Of a stretch of 64,000 bases of DNA, positions 313-60,985 are shown piece after piece. The DNA is from Spirochaetia bacterium (GTDB taxonomy: Bacteria > Spirochaetota > Spirochaetia > SZUA-6 > Bin103). The position numbers and the translations under genes were made by a program. The DNA is taken from positions 544,001 to 608,000 of the forward strand of contig CBDBOV010000002.1 of the NCBI GenBank assembly GCA_965208575.1. Direction: 5' to 3'. Each line of letters begins with the position of its first letter. Position 1 is the first letter of the stretch. The notes below the pieces were generated by a model. That model was not told the origin of the DNA. It saw nothing but the letters and a program-made list of their open reading frames with translations, and did not search any database.

Positions 313-2166
313 CTACGGCGTCCCGATCATGCCGGTGCGGCGGAGAATCTGGTCGACGCACTCCTGTGCCGTGCGCGCGTTGGTGTCCACCCGGATCTCG
401 GGACTCTCGGGCGGTTCATACGGACTGCCGATGCCGGTGAAGTTGGGAAGCTCGCCGCGGCGTGCCTTGGCGTACAGCCCCTTGGTGTCGCGCGCCTCGC
501 AGGTACCGAGCGACGCGTCGACGAACACCTCCACGAAGTCGCCCTTCGCGAACAGGCGCCGCGCCGCGTCCCGGTCCGCGCGAAACGGGCTGATCAGGGC
601 TACGATGACGATCAGCCCCGCGTCGACCATCAGGCGCGCCACCTCGGCCACGCGCCGGATGTTCTCGATGCGGTCGTCCTCGGTGAATCCCAGGTCCCGG
701 TTGAGGCCGTGCCGCACATTGTCGCCGTCCAGCACGTAGCTGTGCCTGCCCTCCAGGTGCAGCCGCTGCTCCAGGAGATTCGCCAACGTCGACTTCCCCG
801 CGCCCGACAGGCCGGTCATCCACAGGCAGCGCGCGGACTGGCGCTTCGCTTCGCTGCGCAGGTGCTGGGTGACCTGAAAGCGCTGCCAGCGGATGTTCGA
901 CGAACGGCGCAGCGCGTACCGAATCATGCCGGCGCCCGCCACCGAGGCGGTGAGCTGGTCCAGGAGGATGAAACCGCCGAGCACTTGCGATTCGTCGTAC
1001 GGGGCGAACGGAATGCGCCGGTTGGTCGACACGTCCACCTCGGCCGTGTCGCTCCGCTCCAGCCTCGTGGCCGGGCGCGGCCCTTCCTCGGGGTCCACGA
1101 CGTGCTTGATACGGGTCACGGTGGCGCCCACCTCGATGCCGTGCAGCACAAGCGTCACGGCGCGGCCCACGTACAGGGGAGCCTCGGCCATCCACAGGAG
1201 CGTGGCGCGGAAGTGGTCGGCAACTTCGAGCGGCGCGGAAGCTCCGGCAATCACGTCGCCCCGGCTGACGTCGACGTCTTCGCTGAGGGTGAGCGTGACC
1301 GAGTCGCCGGCGCCGGCGCGCTCGCGCGTGCCCATACCGGCCACGATCGACTCCACCCGCGTTTCCAGGGCCGACGGGAACAGCGCGACCCGGTCTCCCA
1401 CTCGAACGGTACCCGAAGCGATGCGCCCGCAGTAGCCCCTGAAGTCCGGGCTCGGCCGATTCACGTACTGTACCGGCATGCGAAACGGGCCGGCGTCGCG
1501 CGCGGGCTCCTCCACGTCGACCGTCTCCAGGTACGCCAGCAGCGTCGGGCCCGCGTACCATGGCGCGTCGGCCGCGTTCCAGCGCAGGTTGGCGCCGGTC
1601 AGCGCCGAGGTGGGGATCGCGGTGACGTTCGGTATCCCCGCATCGGCCGCGAGCCGCCGGAAGTCGCCGGCGATGGCGTCGAAGCGTGGCTCGCTCCACG
1701 CGACCGCATCCATCTTGTTCACCGCAAGCACAACCGTACGGATCCCGAACGCGGCGGCGATGCGGGTATGGCGGGCGGTCTGGCGCAGCACGCCCTTCGA
1801 TGCGTCGACCAGCACCACCGCCAGGTCGGAGTTCGACGCCGCGGTGGCCATGTTGTGGGTGTACTGGCCGTGTCCCGGGGCGTCGGCCACCACGAAGCGG
1901 CGCCTGCCGGTCGCGAAGTGGAGGTAGGCGACGTCGATGGTGATGCCCTGCTCGCGTTCCGCCTTCAGTCCGTCGGCCAGCAACGCGAGATCGACGGCGT
2001 CTCCCTGGGTGCCGTAGCGGACCGAGTCCTTCTCGACCGACCGCAGCTTGTCTTCGAACACGCGGCCGCAGTCGTACATCAGGCGGCCGATGAGGGTGCT
2101 CTTGCCGTCGTCGACGCTGCCGCAGATCACCAGCTTCAAGGGCTTCCGGGCCTCCGAGCCACCCAT
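313..2166 (-). CDS. cysNC: Bifunctional sulfate adenylyltransferase subunit 1 / APS kinase
   Basis: GTPase motifs CGSVDDGKSTLIGRL, EREQGITIDVAY, DAPGH, NKMD. C-terminal APS kinase GLSGAGKST, LDGDNVRHGLN. Start ATG overlaps the cysD stop (TGATG). Confidence 0.95.
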   Translation of the reverse strand: MGGSEARKPLKLVICGSVDDGKSTLIGRLMYDCGRVFEDKLRSVEKDSVRYGTQGDAVDLALLADGLKAEREQGITIDVAYLHFATGRRRFVVADAPGHGQYTHNMATAASNSDLAVVLVDASKGVLRQTARHTRIAAAFGIRTVVLAVNKMDAVAWSEPRFDAIAGDFRRLAADAGIPNVTAIPTSALTGANLRWNAADAPWYAGPTLLAYLETVDVEEPARDAGPFRMPVQYVNRPSPDFRGYCGRIASGTVRVGDRVALFPSALETRVESIVAGMGTRERAGAGDSVTLTLSEDVDVSRGDVIAGASAPLEVADHFRATLLWMAEAPLYVGRAVTLVLHGIEVGATVTRIKHVVDPEEGPRPATRLERSDTAEVDVSTNRRIPFAPYDESQVLGGFILLDQLTASVAGAGMIRYALRRSSNIRWQRFQVTQHLRSEAKRQSARCLWMTGLSGAGKSTLANLLEQRLHLEGRHSYVLDGDNVRHGLNRDLGFTEDDRIENIRRVAEVARLMVDAGLIVIVALISPFRADRDAARRLFAKGDFVEVFVDASLGTCEARDTKGLYAKARRGELPNFTGIGSPYEPPESPEIRVDTNARTAQECVDQILRRTGMIGTP

Positions 2167-3062
2167 CAGAAATACCCCTCCCGCTTCTTGCGCTCCATCG
2201 ACGCCTCCTCGTCGTGATCGATGACCCGCCCCTCGCGCTCCGACCTGCGCGCCGCCTCGATCTCGGCGACGATCTCGCCGACGCTCGCCGCCGTGCTCTC
2301 CACCGCCGCCGACAGCGGATAACACCCCAGCGTCCGGAAGCGAACGCGCTTGCGGGCCGGCTGCTCACCGGGCTCAAGCGGCATGCGATCGTCGTCCACC
2401 ACGATCCACTGGCCGTTGCGCCGCACCACGGGGCGTTCGGCGGCCAGGTAGAGCGGCACGATCGGGATCTCCTCGCACTTGATGTAGCGCCACACGTCGA
2501 GCTCGGTCCAGCTCGACAGGGCCGCCACCCGCCACGAGTCGCCGGCGGCGAGCCGGGTGGGGTAGAGGCGCCAGATCTCCGGCTGCTGGCGCTTCGGGTC
2601 CCACTGGTGACGGGCGTTGCGCAGCGAAAAGACCCGTTCCTTGGCGCGCGAGGCCTCTTCGTCGCGCCGGGCGCCGATAAATATCACGTCGTGCCGCCCC
2701 TCGTCGAGCGCAGCCAGGAACGGACGCGTCTTCATCTCCGTCGTGTAGCTCTGCGGACTGTGGCTGAACGGGGTGATCCCCTTCCGCGCCCCCTCGTGAT
2801 TGGTGCGGACCCGCAACTCCAGGCCGAAGCGCGCGGCAATCTCGTCGCGGTGCTCGATCATGGCGCGGAACTTCCACGTGGTGTCGACGTGGAGGATGGG
2901 AAAGGGCGGCTTCGCGGGCCAGAACGCCTTGCGCGCGAGGTGCAGGAGGACCGACGAGTCCTTGCCCACCGAGTAGGCCATGACCGGCCGCCGCGCCCGC
3001 GCCACGCCTTCGCGCAAGATCTCGATCGCCTCGGCCTCCAGCTCGTCGAGCCACGCCTTCAC
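2166..3062 (-). CDS. cysD: Sulfate adenylyltransferase subunit 2
   Basis: [42 protein letters not shown]-terminal [14 protein letters not shown] start placed 7 nt after AGGAG. Confidence 0.95.
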
Positions 3063-3172
3063 GTGCACGCTCCTGCCGCCATCGCGTTCCTCCCGCCAGC
3101 CCGTCCCGCACGTTGCACCGTACGGCTCGGGCATGATAATAGACTGCTTGTACAACCATCCAGGACTCCTGA

Positions 3173-4303
3173 ATGGTGAACTTCCGCACGTCTTTTGCGG
3201 GGGAGGCCGAGACGTTGGCGCAGCGCGAAGAGTTCAACCCCATGTCGATGGCGCCTCTGCGCGTGTGGCTGCGCCTGGTCGCCCGGGCGGGCGGAGTGCG
3301 CCGCCCGTTTCGGGGGCGGTTGCAGCAGGCGCTCATCACGAGCGCGATCACCGCGGTTCCGCGCTGGCTCGAGTGGGCCGTCTACGGTGTGCCGATCGCG
3401 CGCACCCGGATCAGCAAGCCGCCGGTGATCATCCTCGGGTTCCCGCGCTCCGGCACGACCCTGCTGCACAACCTGATGGCGCACGATCCCGACCTGGGCT
3501 ACTGCTCCAACTACCAGGCGGCCATTCCGTTCTGCCTGGTCGGCGGCGAGCGGCTCAAGCGGCGGCTGGCTGCGCGGGTGCCGGAGAATCGAGGGATCGA
3601 CAACGTGGCCGCCGACCTGGACCTGCCGCAGGAAGAGGTGTTCGCGCTCGCCATGCACTCCCACCGTTCCTCCGCGCACGGGTTCACTTTTCCTTCCCTG
3701 ATGCCCGAACTGCACCGCAAGTACGTGCTGATGGACGCGCCGGAAGCCGAGGTGAGGGCGTGGCGCAAGGGCTACCTGCAGGTGGTAAAGAAGGCGACCT
3801 ACATGCACGGCGGCAAGCGGGTCGTGCAGAAGGCTACGCCCAATCTCGCGCGCATCCCGGTGATCATGGACATGTTCCCCGGCGCCCTCTACATCCACAT
3901 CGTCCGCAACCCCTACGAGCTCTATCCGTCCTACGTCCACCTGATCTCGACGCTCACCAGGAACTACGGCATGCAGGAGATCACCCCGCAGGAGCTGGAG
4001 GAGGGAGCGGTGCGCATGTACCGGCGAATCATGCGCAAGTATCTCGCTGAACGCCACCTCATCCCCGCCGACCGCTTCATCGAGATCCGGTTCGAGGAGC
4101 TGCGGGACGACCCGCTCGGGGTCCTGGAGCGCGTGTACGGGCATCTTGGACTGAACTGGGAGCAGGCGCGGTCGGCGATCGCGGCCTACGCCGGCACGCA
4201 GGCGTCGTACCGGCAGAATCGCTACGCGGACCGGGAGCACGTGCGGCGCGAAGTCGACGCGCACTGGGGATTCGCGGTGCGGGAGTGGCAGTACCGGCCT
4301 TGA
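3173..4303 (+). CDS. PAPS-dependent sulfotransferase (Sulfotransfer_3, Stf3-like)
   Basis: 5'-PSB loop [16 protein letters not shown], 3'-PB motif [23 protein letters not shown]. Divergent from cysDNC. Confidence 0.9.
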
Positions 4304-6303
4304 GCACGCTCAGCGTCGCGGAAGACCTCAGCCTGCTGCTGCTCGACGAGTCGTCGGGCGTGCTCTACCCGCTGCCGGGGCGGACGCTGGAGATCGGCCT
4401 GGCTGCCGCCGCGCTGCTGGAACTCACGCTGGCCGACCGCATCGACACCGACCTGGAGTCGCTTTACCTGGTGAATGCCGCGCCGCTGGGAGATCCGACG
4501 ACAGACCCGGTGCTGGCACAGATCGCCGCCGGCACGGAGACGCGGTCACCGGAGTACTGGGTGCGCCGTATCGGTGCGCAGCTCGGCGCACGGATCGGAG
4601 AGGCCGCCCTGGCACGGCTGGTGGAGCGCGGTATCCTGGAACGAGCGCCCGGCAACCATTACTTCCTCACCGCCCCGGTGGCGCGTTCGCGGCGCTATCC
4701 GGCGGCCAACGGCGACAGCGCGGACGAGGTTCGCATCCGGCTGATGAAGGTCCTGTTCAGCGACGACATCCCGGAACCGCGCGACGCCGACCTGATCGGA
4801 CTCGCCGAGGCGTGCGGCGTCTTCACCCGCATCCTGAGCCGCGCGGAGCTGGAGCGGGTGCGTGACCGGATCGAGCTGGTGAAGTCGCTCAACCTGCTGT
4901 GCCGCGCGGCCGCGCGGGCGATAGCCGGCGACCTGCGCGAGCGGCCGGCCGCCGCCCGCACCTACCAGCCGATTCCCGATGCCCGCGGGTTGCCGCTGAT
5001 CGGCGCCGGCCTGGCCATGAACGGCGATCTCCAGGAGTTCGTTGCCGGACTGTACCGCGACTACGGACCGATCTGCAGAGTCTCCGCGCCGGGGCGCAAG
5101 ATGATTGTCCTGGGGGGCAGGGAGGCGAACGCGTTCGTGCAGAAACACGCACGCACCCACCTGCGCAGCAACCGGTCGTTCACGGAGTTCTGCCACGCGA
5201 TGGAGACCGACCGGGCGATGATCTCCATGGACGGCCACGACCACATGAAGCTGCGGCGGACCGCGCAGGCGGGCTACTCCCGTTCGGTGATCGAGCGCAG
5301 CATGGACACGGCGATCGACATCGCGCGGCGTGCGGTGGCGTCATGGCCGGTCGGAGATCCGCTGCCGGCGTTTCGCTCGATGCAGCAGATAGTGGCCGAG
5401 CACCTGGGCGTTCTCGCCACCGGCCACTCGCCAGGGGAGTACGTCGAAGACCTGAAGTATTGGTTCGACTCGCTGATCTTCGCCGTGCGGCGCGACCGCC
5501 CGAAGTTCATGCGCGAGTACCGGTTGCGGAAGGTGCGGCCGAGGATAAAGCAGCTCTACCGCCGCGTGGTGGAGTTGCACGCCCCGGAACTGCGTGAAGG
5601 CCGCCCCGGCGACCTGATCGACGCGTTCCTGGAACTGCACCGCGACGAACCGCAGTTCCTGCCGGAGACCGACCTGATGTCCGCGGTGATCGGCCCCTAT
5701 ATCGCGGCGCTCGACACCGTGGCCGGCACCCTCGGCTTCGCGCTGTTGCGCCTGCTCCAGGAACCGGAACACGAGCGGGCGCTGCGCGACGAGGCGGATG
5801 CCGCGTTCGCCGGCGGGACGCCCGATGCACGGCAGATACGAGGGCTGGAGAAGACCCACGCGTTCGTGAAGGAGGTGATGCGCTGCCACACGATCACGCC
5901 GGTGCTCATGCGCACGGCGTGCAACTCGTTCGAGTTCGAGGGCTGCTTCGTGCCCGCCGGCGCTACGCTGCTGCTTGCAGCCGGGGTCGTGCATCGCGAC
6001 CCCGGCTACTATCCCGATCCCGAGCGTTTCGATCCCGACCGGCACCTGCCGCCGCGGCTCGAGTCGAAGCGGACGGGGGCGTTCGTGCCGTTCGGCATCG
6101 GGCCGCACACCTGCATCGGCGGCCCGTTCGCGGAGGTGCAGTTGGCGGTGACCCTCGCCACGATGGTGCACTGCGCCGAGTTCGACCGGGCTCCCTCCGG
6201 CGACCGCCGCATCAGGGTGACGGCCTACCCGAGCATCCGGCCGCACAGGAAGTGCCGCTTCCAGGTGGTGCGGCTCAGGCATGACGGGGGCGCCGCGCAG
6301 TGA
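4300..6303 (+). CDS. Cytochrome P450 with N-terminal GPP34/GOLPH3-like domain
   Basis: First ~205 aa: LSVAEDLSLLLLDESSG..GLAAAALLELTLADRI..LVERGIL..RRYP (GPP34 pattern). P450 part: I-helix AALDT, EVMR (ExxR), PERFDPDR, heme motif FGIGPHTCIG. TTG start overlaps the upstream stop (TTGA). Confidence 0.88.
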   Translation: MSTLSVAEDLSLLLLDESSGVLYPLPGRTLEIGLAAAALLELTLADRIDTDLESLYLVNAAPLGDPTTDPVLAQIAAGTETRSPEYWVRRIGAQLGARIGEAALARLVERGILERAPGNHYFLTAPVARSRRYPAANGDSADEVRIRLMKVLFSDDIPEPRDADLIGLAEACGVFTRILSRAELERVRDRIELVKSLNLLCRAAARAIAGDLRERPAAARTYQPIPDARGLPLIGAGLAMNGDLQEFVAGLYRDYGPICRVSAPGRKMIVLGGREANAFVQKHARTHLRSNRSFTEFCHAMETDRAMISMDGHDHMKLRRTAQAGYSRSVIERSMDTAIDIARRAVASWPVGDPLPAFRSMQQIVAEHLGVLATGHSPGEYVEDLKYWFDSLIFAVRRDRPKFMREYRLRKVRPRIKQLYRRVVELHAPELREGRPGDLIDAFLELHRDEPQFLPETDLMSAVIGPYIAALDTVAGTLGFALLRLLQEPEHERALRDEADAAFAGGTPDARQIRGLEKTHAFVKEVMRCHTITPVLMRTACNSFEFEGCFVPAGATLLLAAGVVHRDPGYYPDPERFDPDRHLPPRLESKRTGAFVPFGIGPHTCIGGPFAEVQLAVTLATMVHCAEFDRAPSGDRRIRVTAYPSIRPHRKCRFQVVRLRHDGGAAQ

Positions 6304-7493
6304 CCGGCGGGATCATCGACGACCCCACGTCGATTACGCCGGAGTGGATGCAGGAGACGCTGTCTCGGGGTGGCGCCGGCGCGGTGGCGGTCCGGCGGGT
6401 GGACGTCCGGGACCTCGGCGCCGGCGTCGGGCAGCTCAGCAGGATCCTGCGGGTGAGGCTCGCAGGCAGTGAGTCGTGTCCGGCGAGCGTGGTGGTCAAG
6501 CTGCCGAGCGCCGACCCGCGAATCTTCCGCATGTGCCGGCGCACGGGGCTGTACCGGCGGGAGGACCGTTTCTATCGCGCCGTGGCGCCCACCGTGCCGG
6601 TGTCGGTACCGTCGATTCTGTTCCGGGAGTTCGACGACCGCACGCACCGGTTCGTGCTGGTGATGGAGGACCTGGCAAACCGGCGCGGCGGCGGGGCGGC
6701 GGGCCGCGACCAGCTCGGCGGCGCGAGTGAAGCGGAGGCGATCACCGCCGTGCGGGCGGCGGCGCGCATCCACGCGGCGTACTGGCGCGCACCGAGCGGC
6801 CGTGCGGGGGCGCGGCCGGCATCCGCGCCGGCAGGCTACCGGGACATCTTCCGCCCGCCGGTGCGGTTCGCGTTGCAGTACGTCTACGCCAGAAGCGTGC
6901 CGAGGGTGCGGCGGGAGTTCCCGGGTGCGCTGTCCGAGGAGGAACTGTCGCTCGTGGAAGCGTTCGGGCCGTCCGTGGCGGCCGTGCTCGGCAGCCTGAG
7001 CCGCGGCGCGCGGACGTTCATCCACGGCGACTACCGGCTCGACAACATGTTCTTTCTGCCGGACGCCGCCGACCGGTTCGCCGTCGTGGACTGGCAGGCG
7101 AGCGCCATCGGCAGCGGACTGTACGACGTGGCGTACTTCATCTGCACCAGCCTGACCGAGACGGTGCGGCGGCGCGCCGAGGGCGGGCTGCTGGAGGCGT
7201 ACCACGCGGCGCTGGTCGAGGCGGGCGTGCGCGGCTTCGCCCGCGACGCGTGCCGGCGGCTGTATCGTGCGTGCGTCCTCGCCTGCCTGGTGAGGATGGT
7301 GATCGTGGCCGGTTCTTCGGGGATCGAGAATGACCGGGCGCGCGAGCTGGCGCGGCAGTGCCTGCGGCGAACGGTGGCGGCGATTCACGACCAGGACGCC
7401 TGGACGGTCGCTGCCGGACGCAAGGCCGGGGGGCTCGGCGGGGTGATCACGTGGCTGGCGGACAGGGCCGCGCGGCGCGAGGCGGCGCGATGA
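6300..7493 (+). CDS. Phosphotransferase, ecdysteroid-kinase-like / DUF1679 / APH superfamily
   Basis: SVVVKLP, REDRFY, LVMEDL, Brenner motif HGDYRLDN, VVDWQ. GTGA overlap with the P450 stop. Confidence 0.82.
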   Translation: MTGGIIDDPTSITPEWMQETLSRGGAGAVAVRRVDVRDLGAGVGQLSRILRVRLAGSESCPASVVVKLPSADPRIFRMCRRTGLYRREDRFYRAVAPTVPVSVPSILFREFDDRTHRFVLVMEDLANRRGGGAAGRDQLGGASEAEAITAVRAAARIHAAYWRAPSGRAGARPASAPAGYRDIFRPPVRFALQYVYARSVPRVRREFPGALSEEELSLVEAFGPSVAAVLGSLSRGARTFIHGDYRLDNMFFLPDAADRFAVVDWQASAIGSGLYDVAYFICTSLTETVRRRAEGGLLEAYHAALVEAGVRGFARDACRRLYRACVLACLVRMVIVAGSSGIENDRARELARQCLRRTVAAIHDQDAWTVAAGRKAGGLGGVITWLADRAARREAAR

Positions 7494-9115
7494 CCGGCCC
7501 GGGGCGCGGCCCGGCGCTCGCGTGGCGGAGCGCGATGGCGGCGCTGTTCCTGGTCGCCCTCGGCAACACCGCGGTGGTCACCGTGCTGCCGGCGATCATC
7601 GCGGACCTGGGCGGCTTCGACCGCTACGCATGGGCATCCACCTCCTACCTGATCGCCGCCACCACCGCCATGCCGATCGCCGGCAGGCTGGCCGATCTTC
7701 ATGGCCGCCGGGCGTTCTTTCTGATCGGCGTGGTGATCTTCATGGCGGCCTCCATACCGGTGGCGCTGAGCGGTACCATGGAGCAACTCGTCCTGTTCCG
7801 GGCCCTGCAGGGGCTCGGCGGCGGCATCATCATGGTCAACAGCACCGCCGCTATCGCGGACCTGGCGCCCCCCAAGGAGCGCGGCAAGTACCACGGCTTC
7901 ATGGGGATGGTGTTCAGCCTTGCCACCGTCGTGGGGCCGCTGGTGGGCGGGATCGTGGTCGACCGCTTGCATTGGTGGGGGTGGGCGTTCCTGATCAACG
8001 TGCCGCTGGGCATTCCGGTGTTGATCCTGCTCGCGCGCTTCTTTCCGCGTCCCGGCGCCCTGGCGCCGGCGCAACCGGAGACCTCAGCCGGCGCCGGCGG
8101 GTCCGCGAGCGCGCCGCGGATCGACTATGCAGGCATCGCCACCCTGGTGCCGGCGACCGTCGCCACCCTGGTGGCGCTGTCGGTGGCGGGGGTGCAGTTT
8201 CCGTGGCGTTCGTGGCAGGTCGTTTGCCTGCTCGCCGTCGGGCTGGCGATGACCGTGGTGTTTCTGGCGGTCGAGTCGCGCTCGCGGTGCCCGATCGTAC
8301 CGCTGACGATCTATCGCTACCGCGGCGTGCCGGCCGCGGTGGCGGCCACCTTCCTGGCAAGCTTCGGCCTGTACGGCATCATTCTGTTCGTTCCGCTGTT
8401 TTTCCAGGCGGTGCAGAATGCCTCCGCCGGACGCAGCGGCGTGTTCCTGGTGCCGATCATCGTCGGCGTCACGGTGGGCGCCGTGGCGGCGGGCCAGTTG
8501 GTGTCCCGCACCGAGGGGCGCGAGCGGCTCCTCGCCGTGGCGGGCGCCGTACTCCTCACCGGCGGCATCTACCTGCTTTCGACGCTGTCCGCCGAGACCG
8601 GCTCCGTGCTGGCCGTTGCCTACGTCCTGCTCATGGGCGCCGGGGTCGGCGCGGTGTTCACGCTGGCGGGGGTGGTGGTGCAGAACGCCGTCCCGCACGA
8701 GGATGCGGGCGCGGCCACCGCGGCCGTACAGTTTCAGCGGGCGGTAGGCGGTACGGTGGGCGTGGCGGTGCTCGGCGCGATGATGGCACGGCGCACCGCG
8801 GACCGGCTCCGCGAGGAGGTACCGGCGCGCGTGCGCGAACTGCTCCCCGACGGGTGGCTGGACCTGGCCAACGCAACCCAACTGCTCGTCGATCGGTCCG
8901 CTGCCGCCACCCTCGCCGAGCAGATTTCGGCGCCAGGGTCGGGCGCGGCCGAGCTGGCCCGGGAAGTAGCCGGCTACGCCGCGGCGGCGTTGGGCGGAGC
9001 GCTCGGCGACACCTTCCTGCTCGCGGCAGCGGTCGCCGGCGCTTCGCTGGCGGTCGCGTTCTTCATGCGCGTCCCCGGGGAGCGTACCAGGGCCGGAGAT
9101 CCGCCCCCAACCTGA
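7490..9115 (+). CDS. MFS transporter, DHA2 (14-TMS drug:H+ antiporter) type
   Basis: GRLADLHGRR (motif A), FRALQGLGGG, GPLVGG, WAFLINVPLG, many TM helices. ATGA overlap at 7490. Confidence 0.9.
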   Translation: MTGPGRGPALAWRSAMAALFLVALGNTAVVTVLPAIIADLGGFDRYAWASTSYLIAATTAMPIAGRLADLHGRRAFFLIGVVIFMAASIPVALSGTMEQLVLFRALQGLGGGIIMVNSTAAIADLAPPKERGKYHGFMGMVFSLATVVGPLVGGIVVDRLHWWGWAFLINVPLGIPVLILLARFFPRPGALAPAQPETSAGAGGSASAPRIDYAGIATLVPATVATLVALSVAGVQFPWRSWQVVCLLAVGLAMTVVFLAVESRSRCPIVPLTIYRYRGVPAAVAATFLASFGLYGIILFVPLFFQAVQNASAGRSGVFLVPIIVGVTVGAVAAGQLVSRTEGRERLLAVAGAVLLTGGIYLLSTLSAETGSVLAVAYVLLMGAGVGAVFTLAGVVVQNAVPHEDAGAATAAVQFQRAVGGTVGVAVLGAMMARRTADRLREEVPARVRELLPDGWLDLANATQLLVDRSAAATLAEQISAPGSGAAELAREVAGYAAAALGGALGDTFLLAAAVAGASLAVAFFMRVPGERTRAGDPPPT

Positions 9116-9233
9116 GCCGCCCGCCGGCCCGGCCGGCACGCGGGGCCACCCGCCGCCGGCCGTCGTACACGCACGCCCGGCAGCTTGCTGGTCAGGTCGC
9201 GTACTCTCCCCGAGACGCGGCACGGGCGCGAAC

Positions 9234-9740
9234 TCACTGCCGCGGAGGGTCGATCGCTCGGTGCAGGCGGATCTGTCGCCCCTGGTCGCGAACGCCCCCG
9301 CCGCGGCGCCACCCCATCGCCTGGTAGAAGTCGATGCCTTGGCGATAGCCGGCCACGGTCCACAGTATCGCCGCGCGGTAGCCGTCCAGGTCGAGGTGGC
9401 GGTGGGCAACGGCGATCAGCGCGCTGCCGACTCCCGTGCGCCAGTGCGGTTCGTCCACGAAGACACTGTCCAGCTCGCCGATCGAGGGATCCACCGGATC
9501 GCGGCTCGGGCCGATGCCGGCGCACCCGACGATCGAGCCCGCGCGCTCGGCGACCCACCACCGGTGCGGCACTGGCCGAGACAGGTCGCGCCGCCAGCGG
9601 GCGACCAGGTCCGGCGTCACGGTTCGATCCGCCTGCGACACCAACTCGCCGAACGAGGTATTCCACGAATCGACGTAGATGCGTGTGACAACCTCGGCGT
9701 CGGACGCCGACGCTGGCCGGATAACGAGCCCCGGCCTCAT
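9234..9740 (-). CDS. GNAT family N-acetyltransferase
   Basis: IRPASASDA..IYVDSW, GELDSVFVDEPHWRTGVGSAL, FYQAMGW. Confidence 0.85.
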   Translation of the reverse strand: MRPGLVIRPASASDAEVVTRIYVDSWNTSFGELVSQADRTVTPDLVARWRRDLSRPVPHRWWVAERAGSIVGCAGIGPSRDPVDPSIGELDSVFVDEPHWRTGVGSALIAVAHRHLDLDGYRAAILWTVAGYRQGIDFYQAMGWRRGGGVRDQGRQIRLHRAIDPPRQ

Positions 9741-10462
9741 GTCACCCCGCACTACCGGCACGCTTCCGGTCCGTCCTGTCCGGCGTTCGGGCACGCATGG
9801 CGCAGTTCCCGCGTTACGCCGAACGTGGTGGGTAACGCGACGGGCGAATGCAAGGGCATGTCGCCTGCACTGCCCCTACCAACCGCAGGAACGTGAACGA
9901 CACCTCGCTACGGCTGACGGCGGAGGTGGTGTTCGCCAAAGGCATGGAAGTAGTGCAGCAGGCGATCCACCATCGGCGCGGCCGACGGCGCGACGCGGCA
10001 CTCGTGTCGGGCCCGATCATGGATGCTGTCGAGCAGCGATTGACCGGCGCTGTCGGCGGCGGGCTGACCGCCATGCCGCGCGCACTCGCGGGCGCAGGAG
10101 AGCAGCACGATGGAGACCGCGGTGGCGACCGACTGCGGGGCTATCTGGGCCGCTTGCTTCAGGTATGCACTGCAGGCGGCGAGTTCCGTGGGTGTATCCG
10201 ACATCACGCTCCAATGCTCCAATGCCGGGCGCCCGTTGGTCCAGGTCAAGTGGCTTCCGAGCCCGTGGGCCGCCGGGGCCGTGGGCTGCCGGGCTCTTCG
10301 GCCACCGGGCCGGCGGGCCGCCACGGGCCAACCGGCTGCCGGCGGCACCGTGGGCGCCGGGCACTCCGGGCACTCCGGACTCCGGCACGGGGGCGCGTCA
10401 TCTCTGCTATTATCGCGCCCGGTGCGCCGTGGTGACGCGGCGCGCCTGAGGAGTGATGCCCT

Positions 10463-12744: not shown

Positions 12745-13227
12745 GGGCTGCGCGACATCGATACGCCAGGACTATCCCACGCTACGAAACCGCGGTCTGT
12801 CACGCACCGCCTCGTCGCCGCCCCATCGATTCTGGCGACCTGCACCTGATCCGCGGTTCTCATGCCACGATTCACGTGAGCCGGTACGGTCACTCCGTGA
12901 CAGGGAAGACGATGAAAACCGATGCCCGAGCATCGCCCACCAGCCGGCTTTTTTCGGACCAGCCTACGGTCAGCGAACGGTTCGCCGTGGGCCGAGTGCC
13001 TGAAAAAAGTCGAGAAAATCGCTCGCTGCGGGCCTGAGGGGGTTGACATGGTTTCGGGCGCGCGATTGCGCCACGTCCCCGACCCCGCCTGTTCCGCTCC
13101 CCTTGGCGCCCTCAGCGCGCGCTCTCGGCCCGCCGCGTCCGGGTCTGGCGCGCAAAGCCCAAATCGGACGGGCGGCTCGTCCACGGGCCGGCACGGGGCC
13201 ACCGAATACCGGGTGTACCATGGCGGC

Positions 13228-14889
13228 ATGGCACCTGACACCTATACGCAGCCGCGCCCGCCGACGCCGTCAGCGCGGCCTGAACCGGCAGCCACCGGCC
13301 CAGCCGCGACCGCGGCCACCACCGCTGCGAGGGCGCCCGGCGCGAGCGAGACTGCGCCGCTCGCCGTTGCCGACAGCGCAGCGCCTCCGGCCCCGGAGGC
13401 ACCGCCCGACCTGAATCAGCTCGGCAACCGCATCGCCGAGCTGTCGGCGCGCATCCAGGCCGCCACCTACGAGTTGCTGTGTTACGTGCGCGAGTTCGAC
13501 CGCCACCACGGCTGGGAGGGCTTCCGTTCCTGCGCCCACTGGCTCAACTGGCGCACCGGCCTCGACCTCGGCGCTGCCCGCGAGAAGCTGCGCGTGGCCG
13601 CTGCGCTGGCCGATCTCAACCACCTCTCCGCGGCCATGGCCTGCGGTCGGCTGTCCTACTCCATCGTACGCGCCCTGACTCGAGTGGCCACCGCCGACAA
13701 CGAGGCACGGCTGATTGCCGTGGCCTGCTGTGCCACCGCGGCGCAGGTGGAGCGGCTGGTGCGGGGGTGGCGGCAGGCGGACCGGGAGGCGCAGCCGGAC
13801 GCGGAGCAGGTGCGGCTCGCGCGGCGCACGCTGACCACGCGGGTGGACGAGGACGGCATGGTGGTGCTGCGGGCGCGGCTTACGCCTGAGGTAGGCGCGG
13901 TAGTGCTGCGGGCGCTGGAGGCGGCCCTGGAGCAGGTGCCGGCGGCGGAGGAGGAGGATACCGCCGGCGGCGACGAGGCGAGCATCGCGCAGCGGCGTGC
14001 GGATGCGCTGGGGCTGGTGGCCGAGAGCGCGCTGGCCGGCGGGCTTGATCCGGGCAGCAGCGGCGACCGCTTCCAGGTGACGGTACACGTGGAGGCTGAC
14101 GGGCTTTGCTGCCGCGAGGCCGCCACGGCCCCGCGGCACGTTTCCGCGGAAATTGCGCCGGGCAGCGAGGCAGCCTTCGCACCGGCGGCAGCGTTACTGG
14201 GCGGGGTGGCGGAGCAAGTGTCGATCGAGCACGCGGAGAAACTACCGGCCACCGAGGCGCCCGACCGTGACCTGGCGGTCCCGATGCCTGGCCCCGACGC
14301 CGGGCAGGCGGTGATCGAACAAGCAGGAGGCATATACGTCGGCAAGGAGGCAGCGCGTCGCGTCGCCTGCGATGCCGGCCTCGTGGAGCTGCGCCACGGC
14401 GCCGACGGCGAGGTGCTCGAAGTAAGCCGCAGGACCCGCACCATCCCGACCGCGCTGCGCCGTGCCCTGCAGAGCAGGGATCGCAACCAGTGCCAGTTCC
14501 CCGGCTGCGAGTCCCGCCACTGCGACGCCCATCACGTCATGCACTGGGCCGACGGCGGGGAGACGCAGCTCTTCAACCTGGTTCTTGTGTGTAAATTCCA
14601 CCACCGCGCGGTCCACGAGGAGGGGTTTCAGGTGGTCGCTGACGGCGCCGGGGCGTTCCTGTTCCTCCGGCCGAATGGCGAGCCGCTGCCGGCGGTGCCA
14701 CCGGCGCCGCGCTGGGAGGGTGTCGGGCCGCCGCTGGCGCCGACCGTGGAGCGCTTGGCGGCGGCCGGCATCAGCATCGGTCCGCACACCGCTACGCCCG
14801 AGTGGTTCGGCGAATCGCTGCACGTGGCGGCGGCGCTCGACGTGCTGTGGCAGCCGCCGGTGGCGGCGGCGCGCGGCGGCGTTCCCTGA
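13228..14889 (+). CDS. DUF222 (13E12-repeat) / HNH endonuclease protein
   Basis: GFRSCAHWLNWRTG, QRRADAL, RRVACDA, RDRNQCQFPGC..DAHHVMHWADGG..NLVLVCKFHHRAVHE. TACCAT lies 6 nt upstream of the ATG. Confidence 0.88.
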   Translation: MAPDTYTQPRPPTPSARPEPAATGPAATAATTAARAPGASETAPLAVADSAAPPAPEAPPDLNQLGNRIAELSARIQAATYELLCYVREFDRHHGWEGFRSCAHWLNWRTGLDLGAAREKLRVAAALADLNHLSAAMACGRLSYSIVRALTRVATADNEARLIAVACCATAAQVERLVRGWRQADREAQPDAEQVRLARRTLTTRVDEDGMVVLRARLTPEVGAVVLRALEAALEQVPAAEEEDTAGGDEASIAQRRADALGLVAESALAGGLDPGSSGDRFQVTVHVEADGLCCREAATAPRHVSAEIAPGSEAAFAPAAALLGGVAEQVSIEHAEKLPATEAPDRDLAVPMPGPDAGQAVIEQAGGIYVGKEAARRVACDAGLVELRHGADGEVLEVSRRTRTIPTALRRALQSRDRNQCQFPGCESRHCDAHHVMHWADGGETQLFNLVLVCKFHHRAVHEEGFQVVADGAGAFLFLRPNGEPLPAVPPAPRWEGVGPPLAPTVERLAAAGISIGPHTATPEWFGESLHVAAALDVLWQPPVAAARGGVP

Positions 14890-17420: not shown

Positions 17421-18046
17421 TTCGCTTGGCAATCGTAGTAGAGGGGGAAACAGAGGAGGAGTTCGTGAAGCGCGTGCTTACCGCACATCTTCAGACGCGC
17501 GAGGTTCAGGCGACGCCTCACTCGATCGGCGGGAACGTAACGGTGGAGCGATTGGCATATGAGATGGCCAACTATTTCTGGTCGTACGATCGCGTGACAT
17601 CGCTCGTCGATTTCTACGGATTTCGGAACAAGGGTCAGGCGTCGCGGGAAGACCTGGAAGCACGCATACATGAACAGGTGAGCAAGAACATCAAACGGAG
17701 CTGGGATCGATCACGCGTGTTTCCGTACGTCCAACAGTATGAATTCGAGGGTCTGCTGTTCTCCGATGTCATGGTCTTTGGGAAGTTGCTGGATCGTCCT
17801 CCAAATCTGGTGGAGAAGCTGAGCGCGGTCAGATCGAGGTTCCCGACCCCGGAAGAGATCAATGACAACAAAGAAACGAAACCGAGCAGGCGCATCAAAG
17901 ACCTGATGCCGAGTTACCAAAAGAGGGTCGATGGGCCCTTTCTCGCCGGCAGCATCGGATTGGCTACGCTTCGCACAGAATGCCCGCGATTTGGAAGGTG
18001 GCTTGCGCGGCTGGAGCAACTGGAGAATCAGCAGCATCCGCAGTGA
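17417..18046 (+). CDS. DUF4276 family protein (TOPRIM/RloB-like)
   Basis: LAIVVEGETEEEF, SLVDFYG, YVQQYEFEGLLFSD, PEEIND, ECPRFGRWL. ATGA overlap with the ATPase. Confidence 0.8.
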   Translation: MIRLAIVVEGETEEEFVKRVLTAHLQTREVQATPHSIGGNVTVERLAYEMANYFWSYDRVTSLVDFYGFRNKGQASREDLEARIHEQVSKNIKRSWDRSRVFPYVQQYEFEGLLFSDVMVFGKLLDRPPNLVEKLSAVRSRFPTPEEINDNKETKPSRRIKDLMPSYQKRVDGPFLAGSIGLATLRTECPRFGRWLARLEQLENQQHPQ

Positions 18047-18330
18047 TCCAAGTTGGGGCCTCGCGATCGGCACCGCCGGTTGCTTGGTCAGGTGCTGTGT
18101 CCAGGACCGTCCGGTGGCCGCCGACGTGCGGGGGCTGCATGATGCGGTGGCGGCGGTCGGCGAGGTGGAAGGTGCCACGTTTGTCGTCAGTCACGGTATC
18201 GGCCGAGCTACAAACGCGCGCCAATCGCCCCGTCGACCATCCGCAATCGCTCTCTCCGCCCTTGCTCACACAGGCCCACTGGTCCGTGGCCCGTGGCACC
18301 GGCGCGGCCTGTCGTGCGATCTTTCCTACC

Positions 18331-19689
18331 ATGAAGCCCAATATTCTTCTGCTGATGACCGACCAGCAGCGCGCCGATGCGCTCGGCTGCGTCACGCCGT
18401 GGATGGAGACACCGCACATGGACCGCATTGCCGCCGAGGGGGTGCGCTTCAGCCGCTGCGTGACCAACTCGCCGGTGTGCATTCCCACGCGCCGGTCGAT
18501 GGCCAGCGGCCACTACCCGCACAACACCGGCATCTGGCACAACCAGAGCACGACGCTCGACCCGGAGGCGCCCAACTGGATGCGCACCGTGCGCGATGCG
18601 GGCTACCGCACCAGCGTGTTCGGCAAGACCCACCTCAATCACGCCGGCCCCGACCTCAGGGAGCGTGCGCACCTGCTCGTGGCGCAGGGCATCGACGACG
18701 TGTACGAGACGGTGGGGCCGCGGCAGTCCGCAACCACGCTGACGCACATGACCGCGGAGTGGGAAGCGCTGGGCATCTGGGACGCCTACAAGCGTGATTT
18801 CAAGGAGCGCTTCGCCACCAAGCCGCACCTGGTGCGCCCCTCGCCGCTGGGCTTCGAGCACTACTACGACACCCACGTGGGCCGGAAGGCGAAGGCCTAC
18901 CTGGAGGAGTACGACCGCGACCAGCCCTGGTTTTGCTGGGTCACCTTCGGCGGCCCGCACGAGCCGTGGGACACGCCGGAGCCCTGGTTCTCGCACTACG
19001 ATTCCGGACGGATGCCGCCCGCACTGCGCGGCGACCTGCGCGCCGGCCACCGGTCCCCGGGCCACCTCGACGAACTGCGCGCCCGGATGCCCGCCATGAC
19101 GCCGGACGACGTGGCCGCGATGCGCGCCAACTACGCCGGCAACGTGTCGCTGATCGACGACCAGGTGGGGCAGCTATTCTCGGTGATCGAGCAGCGCGGC
19201 GAGTGGCAGAACACGGTGGTGGTGCTGTGTTCGGACCACGGCGAGATGAACGGCGACTACGACATGATCTACAAGAGCAATTTCCTGAACAGCGCGCTGC
19301 GCGTGCCGCTGCTGGTCAAGGGCCCGGGCGTGGCGCGCGGCGTTTGCGAAGGCCCGGTGGAGTGGTTTGACGTCGGCCCGACGCTGGCCGAGTTCGCCGG
19401 CGCCGCGCTCGACTTCGAGCAGTTTGCGGTCTCCCTGATGCCGTCGCTGCGCGATCCCGCGGTAGAGACCCGCGCCGATGCGCTATCGGAGATCCACGGG
19501 GAGGCGATGGTGATGGACAAGCGCTGGAAGTGCGCCGTGAACGCCGACGGAAAGGCGTACCTGCTGTTCGACCTGGACAACGACCCTGCTGAGTCCGCCA
19601 ACCTGGCCGGCCTGCCGGAGTACCGCGACGTGGAAGAGCACCTGCGCCTGCGCCTCCTGGAGCGGATAATGGCCGCCCAGTTCACGTAA
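18331..19689 (+). CDS. Formylglycine-dependent sulfatase (S1 family)
   Basis: KPNILLLMTDQQR, SPVCIPTR (CxPxR), GKTH, GPHEPW, SDHGE. Confidence 0.92.
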   Translation: MKPNILLLMTDQQRADALGCVTPWMETPHMDRIAAEGVRFSRCVTNSPVCIPTRRSMASGHYPHNTGIWHNQSTTLDPEAPNWMRTVRDAGYRTSVFGKTHLNHAGPDLRERAHLLVAQGIDDVYETVGPRQSATTLTHMTAEWEALGIWDAYKRDFKERFATKPHLVRPSPLGFEHYYDTHVGRKAKAYLEEYDRDQPWFCWVTFGGPHEPWDTPEPWFSHYDSGRMPPALRGDLRAGHRSPGHLDELRARMPAMTPDDVAAMRANYAGNVSLIDDQVGQLFSVIEQRGEWQNTVVVLCSDHGEMNGDYDMIYKSNFLNSALRVPLLVKGPGVARGVCEGPVEWFDVGPTLAEFAGAALDFEQFAVSLMPSLRDPAVETRADALSEIHGEAMVMDKRWKCAVNADGKAYLLFDLDNDPAESANLAGLPEYRDVEEHLRLRLLERIMAAQFT

Positions 19690-19736
19690 CCTGCCCGCCG
19701 CTGATGTCACGTGTAGCCGGTCCGCGGGCGGTGGCT

Positions 19737-20618
19737 TCAGGACACGCGGGAGTATTCGTCGGCGGGGTAGCGGAAGGTGGCGGGGGTCTCGCCGTCAGCG
19801 AGCGGGCCCTTGTCGAGCGTCGGCGGCGGCCGGTAGTCGAACGGGGCCTCGTCGGTGGCGTAGGTCGTGGTGCGGCGCTCGCGGAGGCAGGCGCGCAGCA
19901 CCTTCTGCTTGGCGACCACGTACTCGCGGGTGAACGGGCCGTGCTCCCACTCGATCCGCACAGTGTGGAACGTGTAGTAGACCACGCGGCGCAGCTTGTC
20001 GGACACGTTGGGCGGCGAGCCGTGCAGCAGGCGCACGTTGTGGAACAGCACGTCGCCGGCGCGCAGCAGCACCGGCTCGGCGCCCTCGGTGGAGAAGCCG
20101 TCCCGGTTGCGCTCGGCGATCGCCGCGGCGGTGCGCGCGTCGGACCACTGGTGGCTGCCCGTCACCACCCAGATACAGGTGTCCAGGTCGGCATCGTCGA
20201 GGTAGAAGTCGGCGATGAACACCGGCGGGTCGGACGGGTAGTCGTCGGTGCTGGCGCGGTCGCGGTGCCACGGCACTTCGATGCCCTGGCCCGGCATCTT
20301 GAGCACCATGGCGTCCTGGGTCGGAAACAGGTCGGGGCCGGCGATCCGCTGCACGGCGGCGAGCACGCGCGGGTGGCCCATCATGGCGCGCGCCGCGTGC
20401 GACTTGTCGACCACGTACTGGATGCGGCGCAACACCTGAGAGCCGTCCAGGTGCCCGGCGCTGAACAGGTAGTCGGGCGCATCGGGATCCGCCTGGCCGG
20501 CCACGCGGTCCATGTCGGCGCGCATCGCCGCCAGCTCCTCGGCCGCGAGGCAGCCGGGCAGCACCAGCCAGCCGTTGTCCAGGAACGACTGCACTTCAGC
20601 ATCGGAAAGACAAGCCAT
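19737..20618 (-). CDS. Phytanoyl-CoA dioxygenase (PhyH) family protein
   Basis: FLDNGWLVLPG, KMPG..VPWHRD (HxD), GSH, GDVLFHNVRLLHGSPPN..RR. Confidence 0.88.
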   Translation of the reverse strand: MACLSDAEVQSFLDNGWLVLPGCLAAEELAAMRADMDRVAGQADPDAPDYLFSAGHLDGSQVLRRIQYVVDKSHAARAMMGHPRVLAAVQRIAGPDLFPTQDAMVLKMPGQGIEVPWHRDRASTDDYPSDPPVFIADFYLDDADLDTCIWVVTGSHQWSDARTAAAIAERNRDGFSTEGAEPVLLRAGDVLFHNVRLLHGSPPNVSDKLRRVVYYTFHTVRIEWEHGPFTREYVVAKQKVLRACLRERRTTTYATDEAPFDYRPPPTLDKGPLADGETPATFRYPADEYSRVS

Positions 20619-20984
20619 GAGTGTGGTTGTACCGACTCGGCGGGCACTCGTCAAACGCCTGCCTCCCGGCGACTGTGGCCGCCCGCCGCGCCCGACGGCG
20701 CCGACGACTTCCTGTTCTGGTGGGACGATGTGACCCTCAACGAGGAACTCACCCCCAGCGTGCCGTCGCAGAGAACTCGGGCGCATGACGCTCGATGAGA
20801 GGATCGCCCAGCTCCGTACGACAGGCCTCCCCGGGTCGTGTGGTCCGGGGTAGCGGGTATCGCAATGGACGTACCGGCTTCCAGTTGCGCCGCGGAACCT
20901 ACTATGGTCGGCCCTGACGCCGCATCGGCGTGGCTGTCAGCAGCCGGCTGCGTGCGTCACGGAGGTGGACGAGTGACAACTGTC

Positions 20985-60879: not shown

Positions 60880-60985
60880 GTAGCGGATTGTAGCGGATAC
60901 ATGACGCAGCGGCAAGCAGGGCAAGCCTCCACCCTGCCTCCACCCGGCCGTCGCTTCTCCGCGATTCTGTGCAATGATTTGGGAC

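Follow-up and report, generated by a model that had tools for sequence, protein, structure and literature searches.

What does a GPP34 domain contribute when it is fused to a cytochrome P450? The question is raised by a stretch of 64,000 nucleotides from a Spirochaetia bacterium (GenBank assembly GCA_965208575.1, contig CBDBOV010000002.1, positions 544,001 to 608,000 of the forward strand; hereafter the window), which carries one gene of this kind. A first-pass annotation, made from the letters alone, had suggested that the domain recruits the enzyme to membranes, in the manner of the eukaryotic phosphatidylinositol 4-phosphate (PI4P) effectors GOLPH3 and Vps74, or delivers a lipid substrate to it. 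The architecture itself is already known, and the gene is a member of the described GPP34_L family; what appears to be undescribed is the gene context of the fusion. The window holds the most complete version of the operon that we have seen, with a sulfotransferase, a kinase, an exporter and a supply of 3'-phosphoadenosine 5'-phosphosulfate (PAPS) together. We lean, if modestly, towards an intracellular pathway in which a lipophilic, possibly sterol-like compound is hydroxylated, then sulfated or phosphorylated, and exported.

The gene is one uninterrupted open reading frame (ORF), in which a GPP34 domain is followed by a short linker and a complete P450, as the first-pass annotation had described and as translation and a HMMER-type comparison with Pfam both bear out. 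The frame may start at GTG 4285 (672 codons), from which residues are numbered here, or at TTG 4300 (667 aa); the latter agrees with the coordinate given in the first-pass annotation and with the 667-aa length of the closest homologues, and overlaps the stop codon of the upstream sulfotransferase gene. Pfam GPP34 (PF05719) matches with E 3e-33 and 116 bits (cut-off 29.1) over profile positions 2-198 of 201, and Pfam p450 (PF00067) with E 1.6e-55 and 189 bits (cut-off 22.8). The conserved Pro-rich N-terminal motif of the P450, IPxxxGLPLxG, lies at residues 230-240. The ExxR (EVMR, 530-533), PERF (579-582) and FGIGPHTCIG (603-612) motifs noted earlier were all located, and the I-helix AALDT (474-478) can be added to them, so that the heme-thiolate loop FxxGxxxCxG, ExxR, PERF and the I-helix acid-alcohol pair are all present. 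The polypeptide carries no redox-partner domain, again in agreement with the earlier description. Codon-position GC contents of 0.71/0.48/0.89 show the pattern of a real gene in a genome of 67-68% GC. An AlphaFold2 model of the full fusion, built on 120 homologues, has a predicted local distance difference test score (pLDDT) of 91.1 and a predicted template modelling score of 0.89, with confidence dropping around the linker (pLDDT 65-76, residues 221-250).

Both Pfam domains are found in 120 of the 120 best database homologues, related stretches number 341 (see below), and an independent contig from a public run (X12 record 4, 811 nt with 31 differing letters) covers window positions 4330-5140, including the domain junction. 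The public-run contigs are short and, among the pieces listed, none covers the entire operon. Because the homologues share the two-domain form and the junction is covered independently, we conclude that the fusion is not an assembly artefact. Neither of the two doubts that had been attached to the gene, a mismatch between its N-terminus and GPP34 and an error of assembly, was borne out.

The fusion gene is the second of four co-directional genes, coding for a sulfotransferase, the GPP34-P450, a kinase of the EcKL/APH fold and a DHA2-family transporter of the major facilitator superfamily (MFS), in this order (Table 1). Each gene overlaps the next by 4 nt (TTGA at 4300, GTGA at 6300 and ATGA at 7490), which indicates translational coupling, and cysD and cysNC are divergent from them. 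The catalytic motifs of the sulfotransferase, the P450 and the kinase are intact. The sulfotransferase, which may start at ATG 3173, 3242 or 3248, has an Arg-rich N-terminal extension of about 70 residues before its Pfam domain. Its nearest solved relatives are 2z6v (5e-14), the polyketide synthase sulfotransferase 4gox (8e-11), 2zq5 (6e-9) and the CurM sulfotransferase; 2z6v and 2zq5, which the PDB names only 'putative uncharacterized protein', are presumably mycobacterial Stf enzymes. In the PDB the kinase matched 3dxp and the kinase domain of ACAD11, both weakly. The transporter matched the NCBIfam efflux_EmrB subfamily with E 7e-64 and 216 bits, slightly below the 230-bit cut-off, and neither the fusion nor the sulfotransferase nor the kinase reached the cut-off of an NCBIfam equivalog. 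In tblastn searches of the genome (6.5 Mb, 6 contigs), the kinase is single-copy and the sulfotransferase finds itself (772 bits) and one other weak hit (70 bits), while cysD and cysNC are second copies of genes at C2:348546-349475 (cysD, 34% identity) and C2:349598-351259 (cysNC, 33%). A scan of positions 2900-9800 for sigma-70 promoters returned 0 sites, and terminator-like hits were at chance level. Just downstream of the cluster, at 12922-14889, lies the gene for a DUF222 and HNH endonuclease protein, a possible mark of a mobile or variable region.

Table 1. Coordinates in the window of the GPP34-P450 gene, its parts and the neighbouring genes
Feature	Position	Strand	Basis and remarks
cysNC (sulfate adenylyltransferase large subunit + adenosine 5'-phosphosulfate kinase)	313..2325	-	Pfam APS_kinase E 1.6e-65, GTP_EFTU E 2.4e-40
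cysD (sulfate adenylyltransferase small subunit)	2166..3155	-	Pfam PAPS_reduct E 1.5e-45; true start probably internal
PAPS-dependent sulfotransferase	3173..4303	+	Pfam Sulfotransfer_3 E 3.6e-37; PAPS-loop motif PRSGTT
GPP34-P450 fusion (GPP34_L family)	4285/4300..6303	+	Single open frame, translated
GPP34 domain	4318..4923	+	Residues 12-213, Pfam
Linker ERPAAARTYQPIP	4939..4977	+	Residues 219-231; leads into Pro-rich P450 N-terminal motif
Cytochrome P450 domain	4981..6186	+	Residues 233-634, Pfam and motifs
EcKL/APH-fold small-molecule kinase	6300..7493	+	Pfam EcKL E 2.4e-17, APH E 1.4e-15; HGDYRLDN and DWQ motifs
DHA2-family MFS efflux transporter	7490..9115	+	Pfam MFS_1 E 2.3e-51; likely start ATG 7490, ORF open from 7358

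The fusion is not rare in the sponge-symbiont habitat. Ferreira et al. (Microbiome 2025;13:4; PMC11706023) count 656 GPP34-P450 proteins among 663 long GPP34 forms ('GPP34_L'), and 341 of 357 candidate stretches from one-genome-per-species bacterial genomes encode a relative of the window gene when the search is made with an alignment as the query; a single-protein query returned none. According to the published report, GPP34_L occurs only in sponge symbionts, of many phyla; its Table 1 shows the family enriched in these and absent from their free-living relatives. The window gene shares with the published family the N-GPP34/C-P450 layout, a length of about 660-680 aa, the spread over many phyla, the presence of two short GPP34 genes alongside and, apparently, the habitat signal. 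The best 80 of the 341 loci come from metagenome-assembled genomes (MAGs) labelled Binatia, Latescibacterota, Acidobacteriota, Chloroflexota, Gemmatimonadota, Proteobacteria, Spirochaetia, Nitrospirales, Trueperaceae and Entotheonella, and the related loci are from MAGs of typical sponge-associated taxa. Moreover, runs labeled 'sponge metagenome' from several studies contain parts of the window stretch, in pieces that are 95-99% alike. The protein has a match in 22 of the 23 genomes of the window's own family, but 17 genomes from seven further families of the order gave none. The layout of seven genes is preserved in one genome of the same genus (G006, 91-97% amino acid identity) and in one of another genus (G017, 81-90%; G-numbers denote genomes of relatives and L-numbers related loci). 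Both also keep the position of cysNC, and cysD is kept in L093 and L094. Elsewhere in the window, at 17980-22448 and 60974-63370, are genes for a sulfatase, a PhyH dioxygenase, an arabinose-isomerase-like protein and a GH95 fucosidase, a set of sulfated-glycan and lipid-scavenging genes typical of sponge-associated bacteria; a GH95 gene also comes after the cluster in L015.

Which neighbors accompany the fusion in other genomes was counted in the best 80 of the 341 loci, using tblastn matches of at least 100 bits within 9 kb on each side. The adjacency of the domain hits, checked as a single ORF by Pfam in the loci that were Pfam-scanned, placed 57 loci as fused and 23 as P450 alone. A sulfotransferase alone accompanies 20 of the 57 fused genes, a kinase together with an MFS transporter 21, a kinase alone 1, and an MFS transporter alone 1; all three partners are present in 2 (L010 and L015), and 12 have no partner, several of these on short contigs. 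Thus, a sulfotransferase or a kinase is a neighbor in 44 of 57 fused loci (sulfotransferase in 22), nearly always immediately next to the fusion and in the same orientation, under at least 8 taxon labels for the sulfotransferase and at least 10 for the kinase. Among the P450-only loci, 7 of 23 have a kinase; in L019 the distance is 7.9 kb and the kinase is on the opposite strand, beside a second, fused copy. A pump of the AcrB type (resistance-nodulation-division, RND) is encoded nearby in 9 loci, and L005 and L078 have MMPL transporters close to the gene. Two Pfam scans, one covering 105 ORFs from 12 loci and the other 70 ORFs from 8 loci (3 shared, hence 17 loci), bore out the neighbor assignments made by tblastn; L020, L033, L042, L055 and L057 (antisense ORFs at about 70% GC), L011 and five long ORFs were left out of the 12-locus scan. 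In four loci of Latescibacterota from the window's clade (L008, L010, L011 and L012), a gene for a PfkB-family kinase follows the sulfotransferase gene and a PhyH gene is close, so that these two may be counted as additional recurring partners. L083, from a gammaproteobacterial MAG, has its GPP34-P450 divided between two ORFs (L083:9001-11016), GPP34 with part of the P450 and then the P450 C-terminus; either the gene is frameshifted or a pseudogene, or the break is a sequencing error. A protein that seemed to join sulfotransferase, GPP34 and P450 (P0025) was rejected as a natural three-domain fusion: a GPP34-P450, cut after its N-terminal two-thirds, continues at the word ELHRK, which both proteins contain, as the C-terminal half of a sulfotransferase. 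P0025 thus has neither the heme loop nor the PAPS loop, and is a chimera produced either by misassembly or by a deletion between the neighboring genes.

The only printed hypothesis for GPP34_L is host manipulation. In the published model, secreted GPP34 effectors, those fused to a P450 included, bind host PI4P on the phagosome and keep it from maturing, which lets the symbiont escape digestion (PMC11706023). The enrichment of the family in sponge symbionts and its absence from free-living relatives, reported there, are as expected of such an effector, and so are the lineage-restricted gain of the gene (22/23 genomes of the family, 0/17 in other families) and the fold. Modelled alone, the GPP34 domain has a pLDDT of 90.7, and Foldseek against the PDB returned 8 hits at E<=0.001, all of them GOLPH3 or Vps74, at template modelling (TM) scores of 0.58-0.73. 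A profile of 40 sequences matched GOLPH3 (3kn1) at E 3e-11 and Vps74 (2zii) at 1.7e-9, a match that needed the profile, as phmmer with the single domain found nothing in the PDB at E<=1. The predicted strands 118-121 and 125-128 form a beta-hairpin that comes after the long helix in the model, as in the GOLPH3/Vps74 structures (3kn1, 9qpq and 2zih). The domain is therefore GPP34 by Pfam and by Foldseek comparison with Vps74 alike, as had been proposed. It differs from GOLPH3 and Vps74 in being only 14-18% identical to them, shorter (about 205 aa), acidic, fused to an enzyme, and in its residues at the lipid pocket.

In GOLPH3 this pocket is made of W81, R90, R171 and R174, and PI4P binding is abolished by the double substitutions W81A/R90A or R171A/R174A, as described in Wood et al. 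(2009; PMC2806290). The corresponding residues of the window protein, in a hidden Markov model profile alignment as distinct from a structural superposition, are P31, A40, A102 and G105. Across a family of 120 sequences, the position of W81 is taken by Pro in 66 and Ala in 30 (96/120), that of R90 by Ala in 119, and that of R171 by Asp in 60 and Glu in 24 (84/120 acidic); R174 is Arg in 88 and Gly in the window. As judged from this alignment, then, the canonical PI4P pocket is not kept, three of its four positions being replaced family-wide, and the Ala at the position of R90 is a change found in the loss-of-binding mutant W81A/R90A. The domain is also acidic, with a net charge of -6 in the window and a median of -13 over 40 and -14 over 120 sequences, as against a basic P450 part (median +7). 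With W81, R90 and R171 replaced and the domain acidic, recruitment to membranes through PI4P-like binding, as in GOLPH3 and Vps74, is unsupported in the form in which the first-pass annotation had put it. The family has a basic motif of its own, V132-x-R134-x-R136-R137-Y138-P139, just after the beta-hairpin, and also keeps R152, W92, R111 and R195. Possibly, the domain serves membrane or substrate delivery through another surface.

Other observations bear on where the protein works. A check of the sequence found no signal peptide or transmembrane segment in the fusion; the GPP34 fold starts at about residue 11 and the Pfam domain at residue 12. The gene is translationally coupled to genes for enzymes that require PAPS and ATP, which are cytosolic, and for an efflux pump, and a P450 is inert unless provided with heme, NAD(P)H and a redox partner, as is well established. 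Because the protein has no export signal, its partners draw on cytosolic PAPS and ATP and its P450 depends on a redox chain, an intracellular role is indicated. The main text of PMC11706023 has 0 occurrences of 'signal peptide', 'binding site' and 'sulfotransferase', the last of these being absent from the spreadsheet supplement as well; it gives no function for the P450, and it analyses flanking genes for the short form only. We found no account of the operon context of GPP34-P450 genes in the literature, the flanking-gene Figure S11 of PMC11706023 lying outside the search. Unlike the published proposal, the flanks of the long form described here indicate intracellular hydroxylation and conjugation of a lipid. 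Given the pocket substitutions, the charge, the absent export signal and the operon context, we regard a secreted PI4P effector as very improbable; the operon context suggests that the fusion does not manipulate the host.

If the domain acts inside the cell, its acidity could have another meaning. GOLPH3 and Vps74 grip the short basic cytosolic tails of Golgi enzymes, GOLPH3 doing so by means of an acidic patch. By analogy, GPP34 could be a protein-protein module that binds neither lipid nor membrane and docks the P450 to a redox protein, to the Arg-rich extension of the sulfotransferase or to a transporter, forming a metabolon. The opposite charges of the GPP34 and P450 parts and the Arg-rich extension are in line with such docking, as are the fusions of GPP34 to other enzymes (a Rieske protein, an ABC ATPase) reported in PMC11706023 and the surroundings of two short, stand-alone GPP34 genes in the window's own genome. 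One of these (C3:380403-380999; L085:7365-8015, - strand) is followed on the same strand by genes for CtaA/COX15 (heme A synthase) and a UbiA-family protein, probably CtaB, heme O synthase. The other (C5:811896-812495; L084:7879-8535, + strand) comes directly after a gene for a PhyH-type iron/2-oxoglutarate dioxygenase (L084:6841-7620); PhyH genes are expanded in this genome, with 36 tblastn hits for one PhyH protein. Because the stand-alone genes adjoin those for PhyH and CtaA/CtaB, GPP34 appears to associate with oxygenases and with lipid- or heme-handling membrane enzymes, and there are hints that GPP34 domains may work generally with heme or prenyl-lipid membrane enzymes. A purely adaptor role is at odds with the equal conservation of the domain in kinase-type loci that have no sulfotransferase; moreover, the N-terminus of the kinase is not basic. 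We consider it a live rival, if quite unlikely.

The nature of the P450 bears on the substrate. By sequence, its nearest solved relatives are the CYP51 of M. capsulatus (4e-31, C-terminal half only), CYP184A1 and CYP170A1 (3e-28). Orthology with CYP51 was rejected, as the best CYP51 match spans only query residues 189-414 of the 447-aa domain. By fold, the nearest are CYP184A1 with oleic acid (TM 0.84), the heme domain of P450 BM3 and the Methylococcus CYP51-ferredoxin (TM 0.80-0.85). These three nearest structures, CYP184A1 with oleate, BM3 and CYP51, have lipid substrates. P450 BM3 and CYP51-ferredoxin likewise carry an extra domain on the same chain; theirs is a C-terminal electron donor, whereas that of the window protein is N-terminal, non-redox and of a lipid-effector-type fold. 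The P450 that ranks next in similarity within the genome (C3:759086-760528) has two in-frame TGA codons inside the match, and a shorter ORF there (L086:7069-8313) is a full P450 by Pfam.

A FastTree phylogeny of 86 P450 domains (two L025 fragments of fewer than 430 aa were left out) places the window gene in a clade of 11 members (support 100) and, within it, together with L004a-L007a and L009 (support 99); the gene tree does not track phyla. Several of these relatives, which are the nearest outside the window's own family, lie beside or among genes for sterol synthesis, tailoring and transport. After the window-type gene, L007 carries a divergent second GPP34-P450 gene and genes for a sterol reductase (ERG4/ERG24), for a P450 that stands alone and for a fusion of squalene epoxidase and cyclase. 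L004 has genes for a DUF1295 protein, a sterol C-24 methyltransferase, a second GPP34-P450, a flavin adenine dinucleotide (FAD) oxidoreductase and a KshA-like Rieske oxygenase, and L005 also encodes an MMPL transporter that contains a sterol-sensing domain. For the stand-alone P450 of L005, CYP170A1 (1e-68) is a closer match than CYP51 (1e-43). In L082 and L083 a Rieske gene is found immediately upstream of the second type of fusion. The epoxidase/cyclase ORF of L007 (L007:15332-19153, 1273 aa), two genes downstream of the tandem GPP34-P450s, combines a squalene epoxidase with a squalene/oxidosqualene cyclase and resembles the bifunctional MsbE of a Melophlus symbiont. With its reductase, P450 and epoxidase/cyclase fusion, L007 holds msbC-D-E-like genes of the msbA-F sterol clusters described in PMC7074536. 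Functional sterol methyltransferases of sponge symbionts are reported from such clusters in PMC10070321, and L004 and L005 similarly hold a sterol methyltransferase and a Rieske oxygenase beside GPP34-P450s of the window's clade. The main texts of both reports leave GPP34 unmentioned and have 0 occurrences of 'P450'. The window's own genome gave no homologue of the cyclase, the epoxidase, the sterol methyltransferase, ERG4/24 or the KshA-like oxygenase at tblastn E<=1e-8, so that any sterol substrate would be exogenous.

We suggest that the P450 would hydroxylate a lipophilic compound taken from the sponge host, for which a sterol- or isoprenoid-like lipid is the most plausible candidate; that the sulfotransferase encoded upstream would sulfate the new hydroxyl group and/or the EcKL-type kinase encoded downstream would phosphorylate it, with PAPS supplied by the dedicated, adjoining cysD-cysNC; and that the MFS pump would export the product. 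GPP34 would be an intracellular accessory of the P450, giving access to a membrane-embedded substrate or docking a partner through a surface other than the PI4P pocket. The order of the reactions, the substrate class, the export and the role of GPP34 are all inferred. The earlier idea of a lipid substrate thereby gains, since it fits the lipid-type conjugating enzymes and exporters nearby and the sterol clusters of the relatives. A precedent is the cyp128-stf3 operon of Mycobacterium tuberculosis, in which, according to a review (PMC6469627), menaquinone is hydroxylated by a P450 and then sulfated to give sulfomenaquinone S881. The P450 and PAPS-dependent sulfotransferase genes of the window have an arrangement of this type, on the same strand with overlapping stop and start codons. 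The mycobacterial operon is without the GPP34 domain, kinase, exporter and cysDNC that are all present in the window. For the phosphorylation branch, EcKL kinases are described to act on steroids and xenobiotics in insects (PMC10859841).

The same ensemble can be read as a phase I/II/III detoxification cassette against toxic lipophilic products of the sponge holobiont, the sterol neighbors being incidental. A P450, a conjugating enzyme and a drug-type DHA2 MFS or RND pump recur together across phyla, EcKL kinases have been proposed to be detoxification enzymes in insects, a gene tree that does not follow phyla fits the horizontal spread of a useful cassette, and the genome itself has no sterol genes. 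On the other hand, xenobiotic defense leaves the GPP34 domain unaccounted for, two GPP34-P450 subfamilies lie repeatedly inside clusters for sterol synthesis or tailoring, and the dedicated PAPS supply suggests a sustained flux that is more like biosynthesis. We judge defense, too, to be a live rival, if rather unlikely.

Several observations weigh against the pathway of hydroxylation, conjugation and export that we favor. No ferredoxin or reductase gene was seen beside the P450 in the window, nor among the Pfam-scanned ORFs of the 17 related loci. The operon carries both a sulfotransferase and a kinase, a pairing for which we have no explanation. In the census, 12 of 57 fused loci are without any partner (some of these being short contigs), a homologue of the MFS pump is missing from the 20 loci that have a sulfotransferase alone, the thresholds were our own, and the fused state was read from adjacency except where Pfam confirmed it. 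The association with sterol genes comes from few lineages, L004, L006 and L007 being more than 90% identical to one another and L005 being the second; in the window's clade these genes are neighbors of neighbors, and the sister sub-clade (L008, L010-L012 and L015) has none. An acidic GPP34 domain is not what simple electrostatic attraction to anionic bacterial membranes would require, and a role as membrane anchor, while possible, is weakened. Finally, the family has no experimentally characterized member, as the first-pass annotation had already stated.

The operon partners thus offer an alternative to host manipulation for one of the most widespread sponge-symbiont-specific genes, with 656 proteins in 780 symbiont genomes as reported in PMC11706023 and 341 relatives among our species representatives: hydroxylation, then sulfation or phosphorylation, and export of a lipid. 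The value of the window is its unusually complete operon, which makes the function of the family directly testable and is a good test case. Sponges are described as yielding polyhydroxylated sulfated steroids. A bolder proposal, which we put forward as doubtful, is that the GPP34-P450 is the missing sterol-oxidizing step: symbionts, and not the sponge, would make the polyhydroxylated sulfated (and phosphorylated) steroids from sterols of the host or of their own making, GPP34 would be a new sterol or lipid module in place of the membrane anchor that eukaryotic sterol P450s have, the family would be a trait of metabolic symbiosis, and the phagosome-effector model would be wrong. If the substrate is a sterol, the pathway bears on the origin of sponge sterol sulfates and on the reading of sponge sterol biomarkers. 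If true, a bacterial GPP34 domain would for the first time be given a biochemical role.

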